A stretch of DNA of 64,000 nt from assembly GCA_963815115.1 (NCBI GenBank), contig CAWFFN010000008.1:512001-576000 (forward strand), written 5' to 3'. Every line of letters starts with the position of its first letter. Within the stretch, counting starts at the first letter, position 1. Shown here piece after piece: positions 15,640 through 26,530 of the stretch. Position numbers and translations under genes: made by a program. Below the pieces are notes generated by a model. It saw only the letters and a program-made list of their open reading frames with translations. It had not been told where the DNA came from and did not search any database. Source of the stretch: an uncultured delta proteobacterium. Its GTDB lineage: Bacteria; Desulfobacterota; Binatia; DP-6.

Positions 15640-16147
15640 GCGCGGCTTCACGCTCCTCGAGACGCTCCTCGCGCTCGCCATCGGAGGCCTGGTCCTCGGG
15701 GCTGCCTACGCCGCCGTCGTGCGCGCCGCAGCGGCCCGCGACCAGGCGGTGGGCCGCGGCCGCGAGGTGGCCGATGGCCGCCGGGCGCTCCTCGCGCTGG
15801 CGCACGAGCTGGAGGCCGCCGCGCCGCGGCGCCTCGCGGCGGACGCCCACGGCCTGCGCTTCCTGCAAGCGGAGCCCGAGCCGGTGACGATGTCCTACGC
15901 GATGGACGGAACCCGGCTCGTGCGCCGGCGCGCGTCGACGTTCGCCGCGGCACGCGACGAGCACGGCGACGCGAGCGTCGTGCTCGACGGTGTGAAGAGC
16001 TTCGGCGTGCGCTGCTTCGATCGGGGCGAGTGGGTGACCGGCTGGTCTCGCGATTCGTCGCCGCGCGCGCTCGAGCTCGCGCTCGGGCTGGCGAGCGGCG
16101 AGGAGCTGCGCACGCGGGTCGTGCTGCCGCTCGGTGGGGGAGAGTAG
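15629..16147 (+). CDS. gspJ: Minor pseudopilin, J-like
   Basis: ERG|FTLLE; C-terminal W...W...PRALELAL. Confidence 0.75.
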   Translation: MRPERGFTLLETLLALAIGGLVLGAAYAAVVRAAAARDQAVGRGREVADGRRALLALAHELEAAAPRRLAADAHGLRFLQAEPEPVTMSYAMDGTRLVRRRASTFAAARDEHGDASVVLDGVKSFGVRCFDRGEWVTGWSRDSSPRALELALGLASGEELRTRVVLPLGGGE

Positions 16148-16149
16148 CG

Positions 16150-17499
16150 GTGCGCCTGATCGCTCTCGAGATCACCGCGGACGAGCTGCGCATCGCGCAC
16201 GGCGAGCGCAATCTCGGGCTGGTGCGCGTGCACGCACTGGAGCGGGTCCCGCTCGACGGCGATCCGGAGTCGCTCCGGCGCGCCCTCGGCGCGGTCGCGG
16301 CGCACCGCCCCGCGGCGGTCCTCAGCGTGCTGCCAGCCGCCGCGAGCACGCATCGCGTCCTCACCCTGCCCTTTCGCGATCGCTCGCGCATCGCGCGCAC
16401 GGCGCCGCTGGAGCTGCTCGGCCAGCTCCCCCTCGGCCCGGAGGAGGCCGTGGTCGCGGTGCGACCGATCGCCCGCGTTCCGGGGGGGACGACCGTCCTC
16501 GCCGCCGCCGTCCGCCGCGCGGATCTCGACGCCCATCTCGCGCTGCTCGCCGGAGCAGGCCTGCCGGCGAAGCGGATCGACCTCGCGCCGCTGCCGGCGC
16601 TCGACCTGGTTCCGGACGGCACCGGAACGGTGGCGCTCCTGATCGCGGACCGCACGCGCAGCGCGATCGTCGTTCGTCGCGACGGCCACCCGGCCGGGCT
16701 GCGCGCGCTCGGCAGCGATGCCCGCGAACCGGTCGCGCTGGCCACCGAGACGCGCTGGGCGCTGGATGCGCTCGGCTGCGCGGGCGAGGTGCTGGTGACG
16801 GGTCCGGACGCTGCCGGCGTGCAGGCAGCGCTGGCGACCGTCCTGGACATGCCGGTGTCGCTCCTCGCGCCGCCGGCGGCGGTCGCTGCGGCGGGCGCGG
16901 CAGCGGACGTCGCCGCGTGCGCGCTGGCCGCCGGGCTCCTGGTGGGCGAGGGCCGGCACCCACGCTCCGGACTCGTGCTCTCCGGCGGCGCCGACGAGCC
17001 GGCGGGGAGCTGGCGCCGGGCGGGCGCGCTGGCAGCGGTGGCGCTGCTTCTCGGGGTGGTCGACGTGACGCTGGTGCGCGCGACGCTGATGCGCCGCGAT
17101 GCCGCCCTCGCCCGTGTCGCCAGCGAGGTGGCGGCCGCCGCCCTGCCGGGCACCCCGGTCACCGCCGCGCGCGCCCAGCTCGAGGAGGCGGTGGCCGCGC
17201 GCCGACGGCTGCGGCCGGCCGGCGACGTGCCGGTCCTCGAGATGCTTCGCGAGGTGAGCGCCCGCGTGCCCGAGACGCTCCGCCTCGACCTCGACGAGCT
17301 CGTGGTCGAGCCCGACGTCGTGCGCCTGCACGGCCGCTGCGAGAGCTTCGACGCGGTCGAGTTGCTGCGCAAGGCGCTGGCGGCGTCGCCGCTGGTGCGC
17401 GACGTCGAGACGGACGAGACGCGCACCACCGTCGATGGAACGGGCGTCGAGTTCCGGCTGCGTCTGCTGCGCCGCGAGGCGATGGGAGCCCCGTCGTGA
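16150..17499 (+). CDS. gspL: Type II secretion protein L (PilM/PilN-like)
   Basis: Actin-like cytoplasmic domain (RVLTLPFRD), TM helix and PilN-like periplasmic domain; position in the cluster. Confidence 0.8.
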   Translation: MRLIALEITADELRIAHGERNLGLVRVHALERVPLDGDPESLRRALGAVAAHRPAAVLSVLPAAASTHRVLTLPFRDRSRIARTAPLELLGQLPLGPEEAVVAVRPIARVPGGTTVLAAAVRRADLDAHLALLAGAGLPAKRIDLAPLPALDLVPDGTGTVALLIADRTRSAIVVRRDGHPAGLRALGSDAREPVALATETRWALDALGCAGEVLVTGPDAAGVQAALATVLDMPVSLLAPPAAVAAAGAAADVAACALAAGLLVGEGRHPRSGLVLSGGADEPAGSWRRAGALAAVALLLGVVDVTLVRATLMRRDAALARVASEVAAAALPGTPVTAARAQLEEAVAARRRLRPAGDVPVLEMLREVSARVPETLRLDLDELVVEPDVVRLHGRCESFDAVELLRKALAASPLVRDVETDETRTTVDGTGVEFRLRLLRREAMGAPS

Positions 17500-18026
17500 G
17501 CCCGTGGCTCACCGGCTGGATCGCAACCCGCTCGGGCCGCGAGCGGGCGTTGCTCATCGTCGCCGCCGCGACGACGGCCGTCGTGCTCGTCGTCGGCGTC
17601 GCGCTCGCGCTGCGCGCCGACCTGGTCGCCCTGCAAGCGCGCGTCGGTGCGCGGGAACGCGAGCTCGCCACCCTGCGACGGCTGGCGGCGGATCTCGGTC
17701 CCGTCCCCGTCGCGACCGCCCGTGCAGACGCCCGCTCCCTCGTGACCCGCCTCGAGACCGCCGCCGCCGCCGTCGTCGGTCGTCCGCGGATCGCCGCCAT
17801 GACGCCGACCACGGCGCCGCTGCCCGAGGGCCTGCGCGAGGAGCGCGTCGCCGTGCGCCTGAGCGATACCTCGCTCGGCGAGGTCGTCCGTCTGCTGCAC
17901 GGCCTCGAGAGCGCCGACCCGCCGCTGCCGGTCGCCCGCCTCGAGATGCGCAAGCACGCCGACGACCCGCGCCATTTCGAGGCCACGGTCGAGGTCGCAC
18001 GGGTCGTGCCCGGCGCGAAGCCGTGA
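17496..18026 (+). CDS. gspM: Type II secretion protein M
   Basis: SGRERALL plus TM helix and coiled-coil; GTGA overlap with gspL. Confidence 0.8.
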   Translation: MSPWLTGWIATRSGRERALLIVAAATTAVVLVVGVALALRADLVALQARVGARERELATLRRLAADLGPVPVATARADARSLVTRLETAAAAVVGRPRIAAMTPTTAPLPEGLREERVAVRLSDTSLGEVVRLLHGLESADPPLPVARLEMRKHADDPRHFEATVEVARVVPGAKP

Positions 18027-18859
18027 TGCGCACCGCGCTCCTGGGCGCCGCCGCCGCGGCACTGTTCGCGATCGTGCTCGGGCTGAGCTTCCCGACCGAT
18101 CAGCTGGTCCGGTGGGGTCTGGCCAGGGCCCCCGTGCCCGAGGCGCGCCTCATCACCTTCCGGCGTGCCCACCTGCGACCGTGGGGACTCGTGCTCGAAG
18201 GCGCGAGCCTGCGGGATCCCGGCGGCGGACCGCTCTACGAGGCCGACTGGCTGCGCTTCCGTCCCTCGTGGACCGCGCTCGCCGGCGATCCGCTGGGACG
18301 CCCCTGGCGGGTCGCGGCCAGCGCGCTCGGCGGCACGATCGATGCCAGCCTCGGCCTCGACGGCGGCGCCCAGATCGTCGAGCTCGCCTGGGCCGATCTC
18401 GACGTCGGTCGCCTGCTGGCAGCGCTGCGCCGCCGGGACCAGCTCTCCGGCCGTGCGAGCGGCAGCAGCGGGCTGCGGGTACCGGGGACTGATGCGGCCA
18501 CCGGCTCCGGTGAGGTGGTCCTGCAGGACGCCGTGTGGCAGCCAGCGCTCGGCGCGCTCGAGGACCTCCCGCTGCATGCCGAGCGTGCCACGCTGCGCTG
18601 GACGCTCGCCGGTGGTCGCCTCGAGGTGGCGGCCTTCGACGTGCACGGACAGGAGATGAACGTGGCGGCCAGCGGCCAGGTCCGCCTCGCCGACGTTGCG
18701 GACGCGAGCACGCTCGATCTCCGGGTGACCCTCACGCCGCTCCCCGGCATGCCCGGCAAGCTGCGCCCGCTGCTCGACGGCTTGCCGCGCGGCGCCAACG
18801 GTACGCGCGACTTCGTCCTCACGGGAACTCTGGATGCGCCTCGCATCACGCCGCCGTAG
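18026..18859 (+). CDS. gspN: Type II secretion protein N
   Basis: N-terminal TM ending in SFP, beta-rich body, C-terminal LTGTLDAPR. Confidence 0.75.
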   Translation: MRTALLGAAAAALFAIVLGLSFPTDQLVRWGLARAPVPEARLITFRRAHLRPWGLVLEGASLRDPGGGPLYEADWLRFRPSWTALAGDPLGRPWRVAASALGGTIDASLGLDGGAQIVELAWADLDVGRLLAALRRRDQLSGRASGSSGLRVPGTDAATGSGEVVLQDAVWQPALGALEDLPLHAERATLRWTLAGGRLEVAAFDVHGQEMNVAASGQVRLADVADASTLDLRVTLTPLPGMPGKLRPLLDGLPRGANGTRDFVLTGTLDAPRITPP

Positions 18860-19202
18860 CAGCCGGGGCCTCGGGCTCCTGGAAGTCCTCGTGGCGCTCG
18901 TCGTCCTCGCGGTCGGCGTGACGGCCATGCAGCGCCTCGTGACCCGGAGCGTGGGCACGCTCGGAGAGGACCTGCGCCTGACGCGCGCGATGCTGGCGGC
19001 GCAGGCGCTGCTGGCGGAGGCGGCCCTCGCGCCACCCGAGCCGGGCGAGACGAACGGCAGCACCCCCGAGGGGCTGCGCTTCGAGCGCGCCGTCGCCCGC
19101 ACCCCCCATCCCGCCCTGCGCGAGATCCGCGTCCGGGTGTGGCCCGACGCCGGCGCCGCACCGTGCGAGCTCCTGGAGGTGGTTCATGTACCGCCGGCGT
19201 GA
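18834..19202 (+). CDS. gspI: Minor pseudopilin, I-like
   Basis: SRG|LGLLEVLVALVVLA; LREIRVRVW. Confidence 0.75.
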   Translation: MRLASRRRSSRGLGLLEVLVALVVLAVGVTAMQRLVTRSVGTLGEDLRLTRAMLAAQALLAEAALAPPEPGETNGSTPEGLRFERAVARTPHPALREIRVRVWPDAGAAPCELLEVVHVPPA

Positions 19203-20082
19203 GCGCGGATTCGCGCTCCTCGGCGCCGTCATGGCCCTCTCCGCCCTCTCGCTGGTCGCGATGGGCCTGGCAACCGCTGCCGCCGTGGACCGGCGGCGGA
19301 CGGCCGATGCCATGGAGGGGCTGCAGGCGGACGCGCTGGTGCGCTCGGCGATCGCCACGGCGTCGGTCCTGCTCGCCGAGCAGGCTCGCGTGGGGGAGCC
19401 CGACACGCTGCGCGCTCCCTGGGCACATCGGTTCGGCCGCCAGGCGGTCGGCCCCGGCTGGGTGGAGGTCACCGTGGAGGACGAGACGCGCCGGCTCGAC
19501 CTGAATGCACCCGGAAGCGCGGTCGCCCTTCCCCGGCTGCTGCGCCGCCTCGGCCTCGACCCCGCGCTCGCCGACGCCGTCGCCGACTGGACCGACGCCG
19601 ACGACGAGGCGCGGCCTCACGGGGCCGAGCGGGCATGGTACCGGCGGCAGAAGCCGCCGGTCGAGCCGCCCAACGCGCCGCTCGCGAGCGTCGGCGAGCT
19701 CGCGCTGCTGCGCGGCGCGGAGCCCGCGATGGTCGAGCGCCTGCGCCCGTTCGTCAGCGTCGCGGGCGAGGCACGCATCAACCCCAACACCGCCTCGCCC
19801 GAGGTCCTGGAGGCGTGGCTGGGCGATCCGCAGCGCGCCCAGGACATCCTCGCCCAGCGGGCCGCCGACGTCCTGGTGCCATGTGACGATCTGCCGCCGT
19901 GCACGCTGCACGCGCAGCACTACCTGGTGCGGGCGCTCGCGGGCGCGGGCCGCACGCGGCGTCGGGTCGAGGCGCTGGTGTGGGTCGCCGGGGGCGAGCC
20001 GCGCACGACGGCCTGGCGCCAGATTACGGCGCCCCGAGACTCCGTCTCGGGGCGGACGGAGAGCGAGAGTGGAACACGGTGA
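19186..20082 (+). CDS. gspK: Minor pseudopilin K
   Basis: ERG|FALL (no Glu5), DETRRLDLN, DWTDADD, GAE..WY, INPNTAS. The C-terminus runs into the repeat element. Confidence 0.9.
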   Translation: MYRRRERGFALLGAVMALSALSLVAMGLATAAAVDRRRTADAMEGLQADALVRSAIATASVLLAEQARVGEPDTLRAPWAHRFGRQAVGPGWVEVTVEDETRRLDLNAPGSAVALPRLLRRLGLDPALADAVADWTDADDEARPHGAERAWYRRQKPPVEPPNAPLASVGELALLRGAEPAMVERLRPFVSVAGEARINPNTASPEVLEAWLGDPQRAQDILAQRAADVLVPCDDLPPCTLHAQHYLVRALAGAGRTRRRVEALVWVAGGEPRTTAWRQITAPRDSVSGRTESESGTR

Positions 20083-20306
20083 AGAGTGCAGGCGTCGTGC
20101 CGCGGCCGGCAGAGCCGGCGCGGCAAACGTGCCGGAGGGCAAAGCTCTCACCGAGGTCCGCGCTCGCACGCGGCCGACGACGATTCGAGCCGCGCGCGTG
20201 CCATGTTTTGCCGCGCCGGCTTCGCCGGCCGCGGCACGGCGTTCGCACGATCCACGAGCGCCCCACACCGCTCTCGCCCCGAGACGAAGTCTCGGGGCGA
20301 TGTTAG
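20024..20306. repeat. Nested-palindrome element, copy 2
   Basis: Outer hairpins at 20030-20054 and 20274-20300; inner inverted arms GTGCCGCGGCCGGCAGAGCCGGCGCGGCAAAC (from 20097) and GTTTTGCCGCGCCGGCTTCGCCGGCCGCGGCAC (to 20237). Confidence 0.9.
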
Positions 20307-21583
20307 GCGCCTCGCAGCGCCGGCAGCCCGAAGCGCTCGCGCAGGACGCGCAGCAGGGCCGCGTTGTCGGAGTGTCCCGTCTTGCGCGCCACGACCCGAC
20401 CCCGGATGGGACGTCCGAGGAGGTAGAAGTCGCCCAGCACGTCGAGGATCTTGTGGCGCACGAACTCGTCCGGGAAGCGCAGGGGGGCGTTCACCACCCC
20501 TTCGTCGCCGACCAGGATGAAGTTGTTCAGGCGACCCCCGTTCGCCAGCCCCATCTCCTCCAGGGTCTCGATCTCCTTGACGAACCCGAAGGTCCGGGCG
20601 GGCGCGATCTCGCGCCGGAAGGTGGCCGCGTCGGAGAGCCGGAAATCGTACTCCTGATGGCCGATCGGCGGCGGATATTCGAGCGTGTAGTGGACCTCGA
20701 AGCGATCCGCGGGCTCGATGCTGATGCCCTTCTCCTGCTGATCGTCGCCCACCGCGTAGCGCCGGTCGATCACGAGCTCGTCGACCGTCTCGGGCTGCTC
20801 GACCACGCCGCCTTCCTCCAGGAGCGCGCACAGCTCGGCGGCCGACCCGTCGAGCGCCGGCACCTCCGCGTGCATCTTCACCAGCAGGTTGGTGATGCCG
20901 TGCGCGTGGAGCGCCGCCATCAGATGCTCGACGGTCTTGGCGACCATGCCGCCGCGGACCAGCGTGGTGGCGTACCCGGTCGAGGCGACGTGATCGATCA
21001 AGGCGGGGACGATCTCGCCGCTCGCGATGCTCTCGAAGACGATGCCGCTCCCGGGGGGCAGCGGCTGCAGGATGATGCCCGTCCGCACTCCGGAGTGGAG
21101 GCCCTGGCCGTTCACCACCACGCCCCGCCGGATGGTCCGCTGCGGCAGCCGCCGCGGCAGAGCGAGGCTGGGCATGGAGCCGGTGGCACCAGCCGCCACC
21201 GATGCACTCGGGGGCGAGAGGCGCTCGTCGAGCGCACGGCCCACGACGCGCAGGAGCGCGTCGAGCTGGAAGGGCTTCTCGAGGAAATCGAAGGCGCCGT
21301 CGCGGATCACTCGCACGGCGGTCTCGATGGTGCCGTGTCCCGAGATCACGATGATGGGCACGCCGGGCGCCTGCGTCCGCATCTGCTGGACCAGCTCGAT
21401 GCCGTCCATCTCGGGCATCCAGATGTCCACGATGGCGAGCCGGGGCTCCTGCTGCGCGAGCACGTCGAGCGCGATACGGCCGTTCTCGGCCTCGACGACG
21501 TCGAAGCCCTCGTCGGAGAGCACCCCGCGCAGCGTGTTCCGGATCTGTGCCTCGTCGTCCACCACCAAGATCGTCTCCGCCAT
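20303..21583 (-). CDS. lpxC: Response-regulator receiver domain fused to UDP-3-O-acyl-GlcNAc deacetylase LpxC
   Basis: REC: VVDD, IVDIWMP, ISGHG, LEKP. LpxC: QRTI, GLHSG, TVEHLMAAL, VPALDGS, PARTFGF, HKILD, KTGH. One uninterrupted ORF with a GAGGAGG RBS. Confidence 0.93.
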   Translation of the reverse strand: MAETILVVDDEAQIRNTLRGVLSDEGFDVVEAENGRIALDVLAQQEPRLAIVDIWMPEMDGIELVQQMRTQAPGVPIIVISGHGTIETAVRVIRDGAFDFLEKPFQLDALLRVVGRALDERLSPPSASVAAGATGSMPSLALPRRLPQRTIRRGVVVNGQGLHSGVRTGIILQPLPPGSGIVFESIASGEIVPALIDHVASTGYATTLVRGGMVAKTVEHLMAALHAHGITNLLVKMHAEVPALDGSAAELCALLEEGGVVEQPETVDELVIDRRYAVGDDQQEKGISIEPADRFEVHYTLEYPPPIGHQEYDFRLSDAATFRREIAPARTFGFVKEIETLEEMGLANGGRLNNFILVGDEGVVNAPLRFPDEFVRHKILDVLGDFYLLGRPIRGRVVARKTGHSDNAALLRVLRERFGLPALRGA

Positions 21584-21592
21584 AACCCCTCC

Positions 21593-23868
21593 TCAGGATC
21601 CGTACGCGCCGAGGCGCGCGCGCGCCACCAGCTGAGCCGGCTGGCTCCGGACCGGGAACTCGAGAATGAATCGCGTGCCGCGCGGCAGGTTGTCGCGGAC
21701 GCGGATGAAGCCCTTGTGATCGGCGACGATCGTCGAGACGATCGACAGCCCCAGTCCCGTTCCGTCCGGCTTGGTCGAGAAATACGGCTCGAAGAGCCGC
21801 GTGCGTGCTTCCGCCGTCATGCCGATGCCGTCGTCGGCGATCTCGAGCCGCACGACGCCGAGCCGCGCGTCGTGCGCCGTCCGCAGCTCCACGCGTCGGC
21901 GCTCGTCGGGTCTGCTCCTCGGACGGGCCGCACAGGCGGCGACCGCGTTGTCGAGGATGTTGATGACCGCGCGCTTCATGCCCTCGCGATCGAGCTCGAG
22001 CAGCGGCAGCTCCGCTTCCGCCTCGAGGACGAAGTCGATGGTGGGATGCCCCTCCCGGAAGAGCACCAGGGCCTCCTCGACGACGCGGTTCAGGTCGTGC
22101 GGCCGGTGCTCCGCCTGCGGCATCCGCGCGAAGGTCGAGAACTCGTTCACCAGCGCCTTCAGCTCCTCGACCTGCTGGATGATGGTGCGGGTGCACTCGT
22201 CGAACACGGCCCCGTCCTGGCGGAGCTGGCCGCCGTAGCGGCGGCGCAGGCGTTGGGCCGCGAGCTGGATCGGCGTGAGCGGATTCTTGATCTCGTGAGC
22301 GATGCGGCGCGCGACCTCGCGCCAGGCTTCCATGCGCTCGACGCGCAGCAGGTAGGTGACGTCCTCGAGGAACAGGACGACGCCCTGCGCCTGTCCGGCC
22401 TCGTCCTGGAGACCGGTGCCCGCGAGCAAGGCCGCCACCTCGGCGCCGTCCCCGCGCACCAGCGTGAGCTGGCGCTCGAGCGTCCCCCGCTGGCCAGCAG
22501 CTCGGCCAGCGCCGGCCGGAGCTCCGCGTGCGCCTCGCCCGCGAACAGGTCACCCAGCGGGCGGCCCACGGCCGCGGTGGCATCAAGACCGAGCAGCTCT
22601 GCCGCCCCGCGGTTGAGCGTGGTCACGCGACCGCGCGGGTCGGCGGAGATGACGCCGGCGGTGATGTTGGCGAGCACGATCTCCAGGTCGCGGCGGCGCG
22701 CATCGAGCTCCGTGCGGCTGGTCTTCAGGTCCGCCGTCATGTGGTTGAACGCCGTCACCAGCGTCCCGATCTCGTCGTCCCCCTGGCCGGGGATGTACTG
22801 GTCGAGGTCGCCCTGGGCGACGGCCCGCGTGCCCTCCGCGAGCTTCTGGATCGGCACCGTGATGCCGCGGGCGACGTAGAATCCCACCCAGGTGGCGGAG
22901 AAGAGGATGACGACCGTGACCAGGACGAGCGTGATCGTGTAGGCGGTGCGGATCGGACGGCGCTGCACCTTGAGCCGCAGGTACTCGCCGAAGGAGCGGT
23001 CGATCTCCTCGCGGCGCTTGACCACGCTCCGCGGCACGTAGTCGTCGACCACGACCACCCCGGTGACGTGACCGTCGTGCTGGATCGGGGCGGCCGCGCG
23101 GATGACGTCGGCCTCGCCCACCGCGTCGACGCCGGTGGCTTCCTCACCGGTGGACGCGCGCCGGACCACGTCGGACCACGCTTCCACGCCGACCTTGCCG
23201 GAGAGATCCGGACGACGGGCGCGAGCAAGGGTCTGCCCGTCGGCGAACACCTCCATCAGGTCGATCTGGTACTCCGTCCGGCGCTGGGCGAGAAACCCCT
23301 TGAGCGCGGGGCGGCGCTCGGGCTCGAGAAGCCGGTTCTGCTCGAGCTGGGCCGCGGTCTCGCGGGCGAACCCGAGCGAGGTGTCCGCGAGATCCTCGTA
23401 GTAGGCGTGCGCGACGTCGAGCGATCCCTCGAGGGCACGCTCCACCTGCCCGTTGAACCAGTCCTCGATCGAGTTGCTCAGGAACACCTGCGCCACCAGG
23501 AAGAGCAGCGTCGCTGGCAGGATGGCGATGCCGACGAAGGCGACCACCAGCCGGGTGCGCAGGTGCGAGCCCATGATGCGCCGCCGGCGGTCGAGGATGA
23601 GCTTCACGATGTTGCGGCCCACCAGGAAGACCAGGAGGACGAGCAGGATGAGGTTCAGGTTGATGAGCAGGACGAGGACCGCGTCCGTGCCGAGGGAGCC
23701 GCGGCCCGCGAACTGCGGAAGGCGCGTCTCGACGAGCGCGAAGGCGACCACCGCGAGCGCCGTCGCCAGGATGATGAAACCCTCGCGCCGTCGCCTGCGG
23801 ACGTCGGCCTGCTGCGCCGTGTTGGACGCTGGCGCCATCACGGGCGCCTGGTCGGGCCGGTCCGGCAT
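21593..23868 (-). CDS. NtrY-like membrane histidine kinase (HAMP, PAS, HisKA, HATPase); one frameshift at ~22486
   Basis: LRTRLV...SIEDWF, HAMP (DEIGTLVTAFNHMT), AWREVARRIAHEIKNPLTPIQL, FEPYFSTKPDGTGLGL. The two ORFs join if the C5 run at 22484-22488 is C6. Confidence 0.88.
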
Positions 23869-23952
23869 GAACGCGCCGATGATAGGGGCGTCCGGATGCG
23901 AAGGCAAGGCGCCTTCGTTCGGCTAAGTGCCTGAAATGGCTGTGTTCTGCTT

Positions 23953-24168
23953 CTAGCGCCGAAAGAAGAGATTCAACAGGATGGTCAGCACGATGCTCAC
24001 CACCAGCGAGGTGGCGATCGGCACGTAGAAGGTGAAGCGCTCGCGCTCCACGACGATGTCGCCGGGGAGCCGCCCGAGCCAGGGAATGCGCGGCAGAAGC
24101 AGCAGGACGGCGCCGGCGACGATCGCGGCGACGCCGAAGAGGACGAGGAGCCGTCCGACGCCGGCCAT
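23953..24168 (-). CDS. DUF2905-like small membrane protein
   Basis: WLGRLPGDI...FTFYVPIATSLVVS. Confidence 0.85.
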   Translation of the reverse strand: MAGVGRLLVLFGVAAIVAGAVLLLLPRIPWLGRLPGDIVVERERFTFYVPIATSLVVSIVLTILLNLFFRR

Positions 24169-24285
24169 GGCTCCGCCTTGCCATCGGCCGGGGACTGCGG
24201 CAAGCCCGGCGGGAGCCCATCGTAACCTTTCGCCCCCGCCGGACGTGGTCGGGATGAACGCTCCAGCCCGAGGAGGGGACCTGCG

Positions 24286-25596
24286 ATGCAGCGAACGACC
24301 GGTGACGACACGATCGTGGTGGTGGGCGGCGGCCTGTGCGGGCTCACCGCGGCCGCCTTTCTCGCCCGCTCCGGATGCGCCGTGACGGTGCTCGAGCGCG
24401 CCGCCTCCGCCGGCGGCCGGGCCGTCACCAGGCGAAGCGCCGGGTTTGCCCTGAACCTGGGACCGCACGCGCTCTACCGCGGCGGCCACGGTATTCGCGT
24501 GCTCGACGAGCTCGGCGTGGCACATCCGGGCGGCACGCCGAAGGCGTCCGGCGCCTGCGCCATCGACCGCGGCGCGATGCACGGCCTCCCGGGCGGGTTC
24601 GTCTCCCTCCTGACGACAGGACTCTTCGGTCTCTCCGCCAAGCTCGAGACCGGGCGGTTGCTCGGCGGCATCGCCCGCATCGACGCCGGCGCCCTGAATC
24701 ACACCTCGGTTCGCGACTGGGTCGATGCACGCGTGCGCCATCCCGACGTCCGCCGTCTCGTGCACGCGCTCGTCCGTCTCGCCACCTACGCCGACGCGCC
24801 CGACACCATGAGCGCCGGGCTCGCGATTGGGCAGCTCCAGATGGCGCTGGCGAGCAACGTCAGCTACCTCGACGGCGGCTGGCAAACGCTGGTCGACGGG
24901 ATGCGCGCGCGCGCCGAGGAAGCCGGCGCCCGGGTCCGGACCGCGGCGGCCGTGACCGCCGTCGAGCGCAGCGCCGACGGTACCGCCATCGGCGTGCGCC
25001 TGCGCGACGGCGAGCTCGTCGGGGCAGGCGCCGTCGTGCTCGCGCTCGACGCTCCGGCGGCCGCCGAGGTGCTACCCGACGGTCCCGCACGCCGGCGTGC
25101 CGCGACGGCGGTCCCGGTGCTCGCCGGTTGCCTGGACGTGGCGCTGTCACGCCTGCCGCGGCCGCAGGCGACCTTCGCGCTCGGCATCGACCGGCCGCTC
25201 TACTTCTCCGTGCACTCGGCGGTGGCACGGCTCGCGCCCGAGGGCGGGGCGCTCATCCACGTCGGGCAGTACCTGGGGGACGGCGCGCAGGAGCCCGAGA
25301 TGGTCGAGCGCCAGCTCGAGGACGCGCTCGACCGCATGCAGCCGGGGTGGCGCGCGCACGTCGTGGAGCGGCGCTTCCTGCCGCGCATGGTCGCGGTGAG
25401 CGCGCTCGCGACCGCCGCCGAGGGCGGCCTCGCCGGACGCCCCGGCGCCGAAGTCCCCGAGGCACCCGGCCTCTACCTGGCCGGCGACTGGGTGGGGCCG
25501 GACGGCTGGCTGGTGGATGCCAGCCTGGCGAGCGCCCGCCACGCCGCGGCGCTCGCCGCCCGACGCGTGGGCCGACGGGCCGCTGCGGCCGCGTGA
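24286..25596 (+). CDS. FAD-dependent oxidoreductase (phytoene desaturase/amine oxidase-like)
   Basis: VVGGGLCGL...LER....GGRA, NLGPHAL, YLDGGWQ, LAGDW. Confidence 0.85.
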   Translation: MQRTTGDDTIVVVGGGLCGLTAAAFLARSGCAVTVLERAASAGGRAVTRRSAGFALNLGPHALYRGGHGIRVLDELGVAHPGGTPKASGACAIDRGAMHGLPGGFVSLLTTGLFGLSAKLETGRLLGGIARIDAGALNHTSVRDWVDARVRHPDVRRLVHALVRLATYADAPDTMSAGLAIGQLQMALASNVSYLDGGWQTLVDGMRARAEEAGARVRTAAAVTAVERSADGTAIGVRLRDGELVGAGAVVLALDAPAAAEVLPDGPARRRAATAVPVLAGCLDVALSRLPRPQATFALGIDRPLYFSVHSAVARLAPEGGALIHVGQYLGDGAQEPEMVERQLEDALDRMQPGWRAHVVERRFLPRMVAVSALATAAEGGLAGRPGAEVPEAPGLYLAGDWVGPDGWLVDASLASARHAAALAARRVGRRAAAAA

Positions 25597-25603
25597 GAGC
25601 GCG

Positions 25604-26530
25604 GTGAGCGCGAGCCCCGTCGTCCTCGGCACCGCATTCCGGGCCCACGAGCGCCCGCTCTGGAACCTCTGCTACCGCATGACGGGCGTTGCCGCCGACG
25701 CCGACGATCTCGTGCAGGAGACCTTCCTGCGCGCCATCGAGCGGCCTCCCGCTCGAACCGACACCGATCTGCGACCCTGGCTCGTGCACGTCGCCATGAA
25801 CCTCGCCCGCGATCTCCTGCGGCGGCGGCGCCGGCACGCGCAGCCGGGACCGTGGCTGCCCTCGCCGATCGAGACCGGCGAGGACGCGTCGCCCGCCTAC
25901 GAGCCGTCGCGGACCGAGGGGCGCTACGACCTCCTCGAGAGCTGCACCTTCGCCTTCCTGCTCGCCCTCGAAGCGCTCACGCCGCAGCAGCGCGCCGTGC
26001 TCCTCCTGCGCGACGTGTTCGACTACTCCGTCGAGCAGACCGCGACGGCGCTCGATCTCTCCGCCGCCAACGTCAAGACGACGCATCACCGCGCGCGCCG
26101 CTCCATGGCGGCATACGACACGAGCCGGCGGCCGCCGACGAAGGACCTGCAGGCCGAGACGCTCCGCGTGCTCGGCGAGTTCCTGCGTGCCCTGGCGCAG
26201 GGCGACGCGGCCGCCGTCGAGGCGACCCTCGCGAGCGACGTCCGCACCCTCACCGACGGCGGCGCCTTCCATGCGGCGCGCAAGCCGATCGTCGGGCGCG
26301 AGCGCGTTGCCCATTTCTACTGCCGTCTGTTCGAGCTCGGGGGCCGCGGCGCGCAGGTGTCGGTGCGGATGCTGAACGGCCTGCCCGCACTCGTCTTCGA
26401 CGCCGGACATGCGAGGCCCGGCTACCCGCCGCGCGGAATCATCCGCATCGACCTGGGCGACGACGGCGAGGTCCGCACGATCCACAGCGTGCTCGCCACG
26501 CCCAAGTTGACCGCCGTCCGCTTCCCCTGA
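25604..26530 (+). CDS. ECF sigma factor, SigJ/ECF41 type with SnoaL-like C-terminal domain
   Basis: YRMTG...DADDLVQETF, GPWLPSP, LLLRDVFDYS, TDGG, NGLPAL. Confidence 0.85.
   Translation: MSASPVVLGTAFRAHERPLWNLCYRMTGVAADADDLVQETFLRAIERPPARTDTDLRPWLVHVAMNLARDLLRRRRRHAQPGPWLPSPIETGEDASPAYEPSRTEGRYDLLESCTFAFLLALEALTPQQRAVLLLRDVFDYSVEQTATALDLSAANVKTTHHRARRSMAAYDTSRRPPTKDLQAETLRVLGEFLRALAQGDAAAVEATLASDVRTLTDGGAFHAARKPIVGRERVAHFYCRLFELGGRGAQVSVRMLNGLPALVFDAGHARPGYPPRGIIRIDLGDDGEVRTIHSVLATPKLTAVRFP

Follow-up and report, generated by a model that had tools for sequence, protein, structure and literature searches.

Architecture of the locus

To characterize a possible link between signal transduction and lipid A synthesis, we analysed a 64,000-nt stretch of DNA, hereafter the window, from an uncultured delta proteobacterium of the class Binatia (GenBank assembly GCA_963815115.1, contig CAWFFN010000008.1, positions 512,001 to 576,000 of the forward strand); positions below are those of the window. 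The element in question is a gene on the reverse strand that joins an NtrX-type receiver (REC) domain to LpxC, together with the NtrY-like histidine kinase gene directly upstream of it. LpxC commits the cell to the synthesis of lipid A of the outer membrane. The REC-LpxC gene is one uninterrupted open reading frame (ORF) of 426 codons plus stop, connected to its surroundings as listed in the table. An earlier note, made from the letters of the DNA alone, had described this ORF as an intact receiver, a Ser/Ala/Pro linker and a complete LpxC, and had taken the enzyme itself to be the output domain of the response regulator. Both descriptions held in the present analysis, in which every motif named in that note was found and the LpxC part proved intact by family models, structural alignment and conserved residues.

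Specifically, Response_reg (PF00072) matches residues 5-113 of the fusion (E 1.8e-31, 109 bits), while LpxC (PF03331) matches residues 148-414 (E 1.9e-81, 274 bits; profile positions 1-266 of 268), and the TIGR00325 lpxC equivalog model scores 228.3 bits over its cut-off of 187.25. The LpxC hidden Markov models are thus matched over their full length and above the curated cut-offs. The LpxC part also aligns over its whole length with the Pseudomonas aeruginosa LpxC structure 7phn (170 bits). The LpxC motifs comprise TVEH at 217-220 (E219 and H220), T331 in ARTFGF, HKILD at 377-381 (H377, K378 and D381), D385, and KTGH at 401-404 (H404); TVEH, ARTFGF, HKILD, GD and the last His are identical residues in the 7phn alignment. 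We take the Zn ligands to be the His of TVEH and the His and Asp of HKxxD, and the catalytic residues to be Glu, His and Thr. The receiver carries the full set of functional residues, namely the acidic pair D9-D10, the phospho-acceptor D53 in IVDIWMP (codon 21425-21427), S81, and K103-P104. In the PDB, it comes closest to the receiver of Brucella NtrX (4d6x, 107 bits) and to full-length NtrX (5m7n). Likewise, NtrX (NF051870) is its best NCBIfam receiver match, at 137.6 bits against a cut-off of 600 and over residues 3-120 only, that is, over the receiver part alone. No AAA+ or helix-turn-helix (HTH) domain was found by Pfam in the 426-aa protein. Judged by its domains, this protein is not an NtrX, although its receiver is of NtrX type and its relatives include whole NtrX-LpxC fusions. 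It is also not a bifunctional LpxC-FabZ: the corresponding model (NF009667) reaches 200.9 bits against a cut-off of 465, with the LpxC part alone matching and no FabZ part present.

The functional residues of both domains are conserved across the family. In an alignment of 45 short fusions with identities down to 31%, D10, D53 and K103 are invariant in all 45, and D9 and S81 are kept in at least 90%. The LpxC residues E219, H220, H377, K378, D381, D385 and H404 are invariant in the same 45 proteins; T331 is replaced by Ser in the Desulfopila-type group, and the LpxC catalytic set is otherwise invariant. A pseudo-receiver reading was rejected because the phospho-site is invariant in 45/45. The linker varies among relatives in both length and sequence, and the C-terminal tail behind the LpxC domain is short and variable. 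The AlphaFold2 model of the fusion (mean predicted local distance difference test score, pLDDT, 88.3; predicted template modelling score, pTM, 0.87) reproduces the (beta-alpha)5 pattern of the receiver, and its pLDDT falls below 50 only at residues 121-138, in the linker, and at the last three residues.

Directly upstream lies the kinase gene, for which all five domains of an NtrY-type protein (NtrY_N, HAMP, PAS, HisKA and HATPase_c) were found. The kinase stop codon occupies 21593-21595 and the ATG of the fusion stands at 21583, leaving a gap of 9 nt, GGAGGGGTT, which is a strong ribosome-binding site as predicted from its sequence. The fusion was said to start 9 bp after an NtrY-type kinase gene, at the position where NtrX would be expected. 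The spacing and the kinase domains agree with this, and the best matches of the receiver to NtrX, in NCBIfam and in the Brucella structure, support the NtrX position; what had been missed is a 1-nt break in the kinase frame. The five domains are distributed over two overlapping ORFs in different frames (22159-23907 and 21593-22459) and not over one intact frame. By hand reading, the N-terminal frame is sensible up to ...LAELLASGG and the C-terminal frame from ...TLERQLTLVRGDG. The first possible kinase start, at 23907, is a candidate start codon.

We consider this frame break likely to be a homopolymer error of the assembly and not a real indel. A contig of public run X5, which comes from a relative of about 94% identity, covers 22313-22518 and has one extra base behind 22486 that opens the frame (one contig, depth 3.7), and the kinases of three related loci (L002, L003 and G043) are each encoded in one frame. 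Moreover, the genome has at least four further NtrC-family loci whose neighbouring pieces lie in different frames, a pattern expected from assembly indel errors; these are found at C5:1055336-1056338, C9:1694099-1694974, C5:13373-14071 and C9:1863713-1864291 of genome G000. Contigs of the public soil run X1 are at least 99% identical to the window, and none of them lies over 22360-22722, so that the site of the break is uncovered in that run. If the indel were real, the wire from kinase to LpxC would be cut in this strain.

Features of the REC-LpxC locus in the window
Feature	Coordinates	Strand	Basis or remark
REC-LpxC fusion gene	20303..21583	-	one uninterrupted ORF, 426 aa + stop
LpxC deacetylase domain, residues 144-426	20306..21154	-	Pfam, TIGR00325
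Ser/Ala/Pro-rich linker, residues 121-143 (23 aa)	21155..21223	-	alignment, pLDDT
NtrX-type receiver, residues 1-120	21224..21583	-	Pfam, NCBIfam and PDB matches
9-nt spacer GGAGGGGTT with Shine-Dalgarno GGAGG	21584..21592	-	between kinase stop and fusion ATG
NtrY-like kinase, C-terminal part (end of PAS, HisKA, HATPase_c)	21593..22459	-	Pfam; coding in frame from near 22486
G5 homopolymer with the 1-nt shift of the kinase frame	22484..22488	-	frames read by hand
NtrY-like kinase, N-terminal part (NtrY_N membrane region, HAMP, PAS)	22487..23907	-	Pfam
Small DUF2905 membrane protein gene	23953..24171	-	Pfam; 45 nt upstream of kinase ORF

To place the fusion in its genome, we searched the whole assembly, which consists of 12 contigs and 6.89 Mb and is scored 100% complete. 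The REC-LpxC fusion is the only LpxC match, so the second lpxC that was to be looked for does not appear in this genome; LpxB is present. Since the fusion is the only LpxC, lipid A synthesis would have to pass through it. Similarly, the kinase upstream of the fusion is the only NtrY_N match of the genome. No full NtrX scores above its cut-off, the best match reaching 409 bits against 600 among about 60 NtrC-like matches. A LapB equivalog was not found with model NF008757 (best match 44.8 bits, cut-off 363), and this miss is weak evidence, as the model passes its cut-off only in Escherichia coli among 14 control genomes. A Zn_ribbon_LapB match was rejected as LapB because it lies at the N-terminus of a 465-aa ORF that is not LapB-like.

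The DUF2905 gene may belong to the same predicted operon as the kinase and the fusion, and the order DUF2905, kinase, fusion also occurs in the Binatia locus L003. Elsewhere around the locus, a set of type II secretion genes on the forward strand (16030-20082) is convergent with the REC-LpxC gene and meets it at its 3' end, with GspL-like (16030-17499), GspI-like pseudopilin (18834-19202) and GspK (19186-20082) members. On the other side, an extracytoplasmic function (ECF)-type sigma factor gene (Sigma70_r2 and r4_2; 25517-26530, forward strand), with a weak SnoaL_2-like C-terminal extension, is found beside genes for an amine-oxidase-type flavoprotein (24286-25596) and an enoyl-CoA hydratase.

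Integrity of the junction and spread of the family

Because the genome is a metagenome-type assembly with indel errors, a misassembly or gene-calling artefact joining ntrX and lpxC has to be weighed; nothing further speaks for it, and we regard it as practically negligible. In run X1, a 537-nt contig reaches across the linker (20799-21335) and matches the window with 0 differences, which provides the independent support across the junction that had been sought, and a contig of run X5 from the relative of about 94% identity covers 20450-21290. Both PF00072 and PF03331 are present in every one of the 120 best-matching protein clusters, which come from many sources and contain proteins of about 426 aa at 75-97% identity; their named members are 'Candidatus Binatia bacterium'. 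The junction is hence not unique to this assembly. Together with the uninterrupted ORF and the occurrence of the same architecture in genomes of several phyla, including an isolate, and in 12 of 60 sampled genomes of the same phylum, these data led us to reject misassembly.

The distribution of the fusion was examined on contigs with one genome per species, taxa being assigned by record title. Full-length REC-LpxC proteins were recovered from records titled Binatia, 'Deltaproteobacteria', Thermoanaerobaculia, Holophagae/Holophagales, Syntrophorhabdus, Desulfocapsaceae, Nitrospirota and Myxococcota, so that the combination of Response_reg and LpxC, for which a search had been advised, exists in several phyla by this measure. 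One of these records, Desulfopila sp. IMCC35006, is an isolate. Among 60 other genomes of the window's phylum, the fused gene was found in 12 (seven short, two short/middle and three long forms), an unfused LpxC only in 45, and receiver matches only (E <= 1e-30) in two; the one genome without any match is scored 66% complete. In the Holophagales, Acidobacteriota and 'bin116' genomes tested, no LpxC other than the fused one was found.

Several loci recovered in the same search are recorded here as observations. A partial second LpxC-like stretch lies 1 kb downstream of the Thermoanaerobaculia fusion (L010, 4380-4697), and a Hydrogenedentota locus carries tandem LpxC genes (L078, 4476-5285 and 6001-6822). 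An NtrX-LpxC fusion was seen on a 3.2-kb contig of a 'Promethearchaeota archaeon' metagenome-assembled genome (MAG; L004), a REC-LpxC in an 'Enterobacteriaceae' bin (L011), and an Acidobacteria-like LpxC in a 'Bifidobacteriaceae' bin (L056); these odd titles are probably binning or labelling errors.

Long and middle forms and the origin of the fusion

To trace the origin of the fusion, we compared its relatives by length and domain content. In a search of 1.84 billion representatives, the top matches comprise short (412-461 aa), middle (448-505 aa) and long (681-736 aa) forms. Three long forms (L005, L004 and L018; single ORFs of 734, 728 and 704 aa) each combine Response_reg, Sigma54_activat, AAA_lid_14 and LpxC, and in L005 an NtrY kinase gene lies directly upstream. 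A search with the L005 protein gave, as its best 120 clusters, proteins of 51-99% identity and mostly 720-745 aa; all 120 list Sigma54_activat, AAA_lid_14 and LpxC, and 117 also list the receiver, the shorter P0153, P0156 and P0158 being those without a receiver entry. Source annotations call the long forms either 'NtrX' or 'LpxC'. HTH_8 scores over its cut-off between the lid and LpxC in the long forms P0171 and P0250 and is mostly undetectable among the others. P0245, at 491 aa, is a REC-HTH_8-LpxC with HTH_8 over the cut-off, and has lost the AAA+ module alone.

The AAA+ module of the long forms shows signs of decay. Walker A is kept in 128 of 131 long forms and GAFTGA in none of the 131, while the DE of Walker B is lost in all 12 long forms read, where DS, EG, KA, DG, DD, DR and others take its place. 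With the Walker-B glutamate lost, the ATPase looks inactive in those 12 proteins, and contact of the long forms with sigma-54 would not be expected from their sequences.

Trees of the LpxC domain separate fused from unfused proteins. In a FastTree analysis of 204 rows, this split has a support of 99; the fused side holds 45 short, 29 long, 9 middle and 6 N-terminally incomplete proteins together with 8 rows labelled unfused, and the other side holds 107 unfused rows. An IQ-TREE analysis (LG+C20 model with posterior mean site frequencies, PMSF) of 102 rows, made without those 8 rows, which were suspect, without 17 near-duplicates and with only a third of the unfused rows, splits 66 fused from 36 unfused rows at a Shimodaira-Hasegawa-like approximate likelihood ratio test (SH-aLRT) value of 100. 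Within the fused clade, P0245 and the long form P0250 are sisters (100), and the other middle forms pair with long forms. The Binatia clade of the window has the long form P0243 as its sister (90), and both nest in a group composed mostly of long forms (89, 91). The label 'short' changes eight times on the tree, with at least two of the changes forced by starred branches. Four proteins of LpxC size inside the fused clade (P0270, P0281, P0300 and P0348; 283-292 aa) may be either truncated gene calls or products of a real secondary fission.

NtrX is the best NCBIfam match of the receiver in each of the five subfamilies tested: the Holophagales orphan, the Desulfopila type, a long form, a short form from a deep branch, and an unfused NtrX whose gene neighbours ntrY. 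The intermediates, the fused-clade tree and these NtrX-type receivers support, at the level of sequence comparison, a single ancient fusion of NtrX with LpxC, after which the middle part was lost repeatedly. The earlier suggestion that the fusion arose by loss of the AAA+/HTH part of NtrX fits the living REC-AAA+-lid-HTH_8-LpxC and REC-HTH_8-LpxC forms and the single fused clade. A point against this order is that short forms make up the deepest branches of the fused clade and that support along the backbone is weak, and so the tree alone cannot fix the order of events; the order from long to short follows mainly from the NtrX-like architecture and the observed intermediates. Overall, the comparison shows the REC-LpxC of the window to be the shortest form of a large family of apparently single origin.

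Proposed control of LpxC and its alternatives

Next, we considered what the receiver may do for the enzyme. With moderate confidence, we favour the reading that the kinase and the fusion form a two-gene signalling unit of a Binatia-like soil bacterium, in which the kinase would phosphorylate D53 and thereby set the output of the sole LpxC after translation. The unit would consist of an NtrY-type membrane histidine kinase followed, at a spacing suited to translational coupling, by the REC-LpxC regulator; a signal from the envelope or of redox type would lead to phosphorylation of D53, and LpxC output would then depend, with no transcription step, on whether the receiver is phosphorylated. The most likely mode would be similar to that of CheB, with the tethered receiver packing on the enzyme in one state and releasing or re-orienting when phosphorylated; a change of oligomeric state is the second possible mode. 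The direction of control could be activation or inhibition. The short, disordered and unconserved linker fits either mode, and the pTM of 0.87 despite the disordered linker is a weak hint, from the model, at a defined arrangement of the two domains.

A further-reaching version can be put forward only tentatively. Here, NtrY-dependent phosphorylation of D53 would directly switch the sole LpxC and would replace FtsH/LapB as the master valve of lipid A, and a transcription factor would have captured its own target gene stepwise: lpxC placed beside ntrYX, then a whole NtrX-LpxC, then decay of AAA+ and HTH, and finally REC-LpxC.

Several observations weigh against phospho-control by an adjacent NtrY-like kinase. 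The kinase lies directly upstream of the fusion in L002, L003, L023, L005, G043, G011 and G040, in keeping with the conserved ntrY neighbour for which a check had been proposed, but of the 12 fused genes that the sample of the phylum yielded, only 3 have an NtrY-like kinase directly upstream, and the fusions of Acidobacteriota, Desulfopila and Nitrospirota are orphans with no such kinase beside them. Around the orphans L007, L014 and L039, no kinase and no shared genes were found; the matches nearby are amidohydrolase, transposase, DUF2071, PilZ and NlpC/P60. In five other fusion-bearing genomes, NtrY_N exceeds its cut-off in two and gives a weak match in one more, none of them near the fusion. 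The kinase neighbour is frequent in the window's class and not in the family at large. Additionally, Desulfopila and one Nitrospirota genome carry the fusion and a standard LpxC together, so the fusion need not be the housekeeping enzyme in those genomes. The linker, being unconserved and disordered, argues against rigid helical coupling, and the kinase ORF is interrupted in this assembly at a site without X1 cover. Separately, non-NtrY-like kinase/receiver pieces of 20-35% identity were seen upstream of the Holophagales fusion L016 (3796-4838) and of the Desulfomonile long fusion L018 (1498-3981); these could be alternative partner kinases.

The main rival holds that the receiver sets the amount of LpxC and not its catalysis: phosphorylation would uncover or mask a degron or a face that binds an adaptor, as in receivers of the RssB/CpdR type, with a protease adjusting the level, so that the receiver would be the functional equivalent of FtsH/LapB control in E. 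coli. We judge this unlikely. Two papers describe proteolytic control of LpxC in E. coli (PMC3333781; PMC6339880), the missing LapB equivalog in the window's genome would leave room for another route, and the short, variable C-terminal tail and the flexible linker agree with this reading; but the sequence contains no pointer to a protease or adaptor, the LapB miss says little given that the model recognized E. coli alone among the controls, and the receiver is of NtrX and not of RssB type. Also of low probability, in our view, is a decaying system in this strain, in which the kinase is a true pseudogene and REC-LpxC is constitutive, whether it stays unphosphorylated or receives its phosphate from acetyl phosphate or from a different kinase. 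The two kinase frames, the lack of X1 cover at the break and the many relatives with orphan fusions agree with such decay. Yet the only damage is one 1-nt difference in a G5 run, the domain matches of the two halves are complete, the frame is open in the X5 contig of the close relative and in the kinases of L002, L003 and G043, and the other split NtrC-family loci of the genome look like products of assembly indels.

It is more doubtful still that the receiver has no role in LpxC regulation and persists as a leftover phosphate sink, for signalling in trans, or for co-expression with the NtrY pathway only. The unconserved linker agrees with this possibility, as does the fact that parts of these proteins can decay, as seen in the lost Walker-B glutamates and the mostly undetectable HTH_8. 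A useless receiver, however, would be expected to lose its phospho-site, and none of the 45 short fusions, which by record title come from at least three phyla, deviates at D10, D53 or K103. AAA+ and HTH were deleted repeatedly, and REC was always kept next to LpxC; moreover, the fused clade is old, and in genomes of Binatia, Holophagales and other Acidobacteriota its member is the only LpxC.

Control of lpxC by two-component systems appears to be older than the fusion. In five loci of Methylomirabilota/Rokubacteria type, the order is lpxC, ntrY and an ntrX-type receiver gene, with lpxC unfused, and of the 45 genomes sampled from the window's phylum that have only an unfused lpxC, 10 carry an NtrX-sized receiver ORF about 3-6 kb downstream of that gene on the same strand. 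According to Rajeev et al. 2011 (PMC3333781), lpxC is the one target of the sigma54-type regulator DVU2934 in Desulfovibrio vulgaris, and the orthologous operon of Syntrophobacter fumaroxidans has lpxC as its neighbour. Lemmer et al. 2020 (PMC7240162) report 8.8-fold more lpxC mRNA and more lipopolysaccharide in Rhodobacter sphaeroides without ntrYX, as an indirect effect. These papers and the placement of lpxC beside ntrYX indicate that two-component control of lpxC predates the fusion.

The fusion can be compared with each of these systems. It shares the kinase layout and the receiver type of NtrY/NtrX of Brucella, Rhodobacter sphaeroides and Caulobacter, and the study PMC7240162 cited above likewise connects NtrYX of R. 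sphaeroides with the cell envelope and lpxC mRNA. NtrX, however, is a REC-AAA+-HTH protein acting on DNA, and its effect on lpxC in R. sphaeroides is indirect and transcriptional, whereas LpxC takes the place of AAA+ and HTH in the fusion. The D. vulgaris pair DVU2931 (kinase) and DVU2934 resembles it, by class, in having an NtrC/NtrX-class regulator dedicated to lpxC; there the regulator binds DNA upstream of a separate lpxC, while in the fusion regulator and target are one polypeptide. The long NtrX-LpxC fusions (about 700-745 aa, from Thermodesulfobacteriota MAGs) have the same LpxC clade, the same NtrX-type receiver and, in L005, G011 and G040, an NtrY kinase upstream; they keep the AAA+ module, and some HTH_8, where the protein of the window has its 23-aa linker.

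Response regulators with enzymatic outputs are a known kind, and CheB is autoinhibited by its own receiver. CheB, PleD/WspR (REC-GGDEF) and RpfG (REC-HD-GYP) share with the fusion a receiver, a flexible linker and a catalytic domain in one chain, and the fusion belongs with them by architecture alone; no homology to the CheB catalytic domain was found, and its output is a biosynthetic enzyme of an essential pathway in place of a signalling enzyme. The FtsH/LapB system of E. coli acts on the same enzyme and meets the same problem of setting the flux into lipid A, but a LapB equivalog was not found in the genome of the window (44.8 bits against 363). LpxC-FabZ/FabA is a known LpxC fusion (bioRxiv 10.1101/2025.10.16.682753), whereas the partner of LpxC here is an N-terminal signalling domain and not FabZ. 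A literature search, made without subscription journals and supplements, found no description of a REC-LpxC fusion or of phospho-control of LpxC, and no name for the long forms. LpxC as the output of a response regulator therefore appears to be new, in that it is not described in the papers found, although regulators with enzymatic outputs are already known.

New for this locus are the sole LpxC, the 1-nt break of the kinase frame, the support of the junction by public reads, and the high frequency of the kinase neighbour in this class as against the family at large. Control of LpxC is understood mainly in enterobacteria, through FtsH/LapB proteolysis. If the proposed reading is true, a receiver-LpxC as the sole LpxC of Binatia and of many Acidobacteriota would be a different solution, namely direct phospho-control by a membrane sensor. 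An essential biosynthetic enzyme would then have been turned into a two-component output domain, and gene regulation would have been converted into post-translational regulation. Lipid A flux as an output would also point to what NtrY-type kinases sense. The family itself is a clear natural example of a regulator that fused to its target and then shed its DNA-binding machinery.

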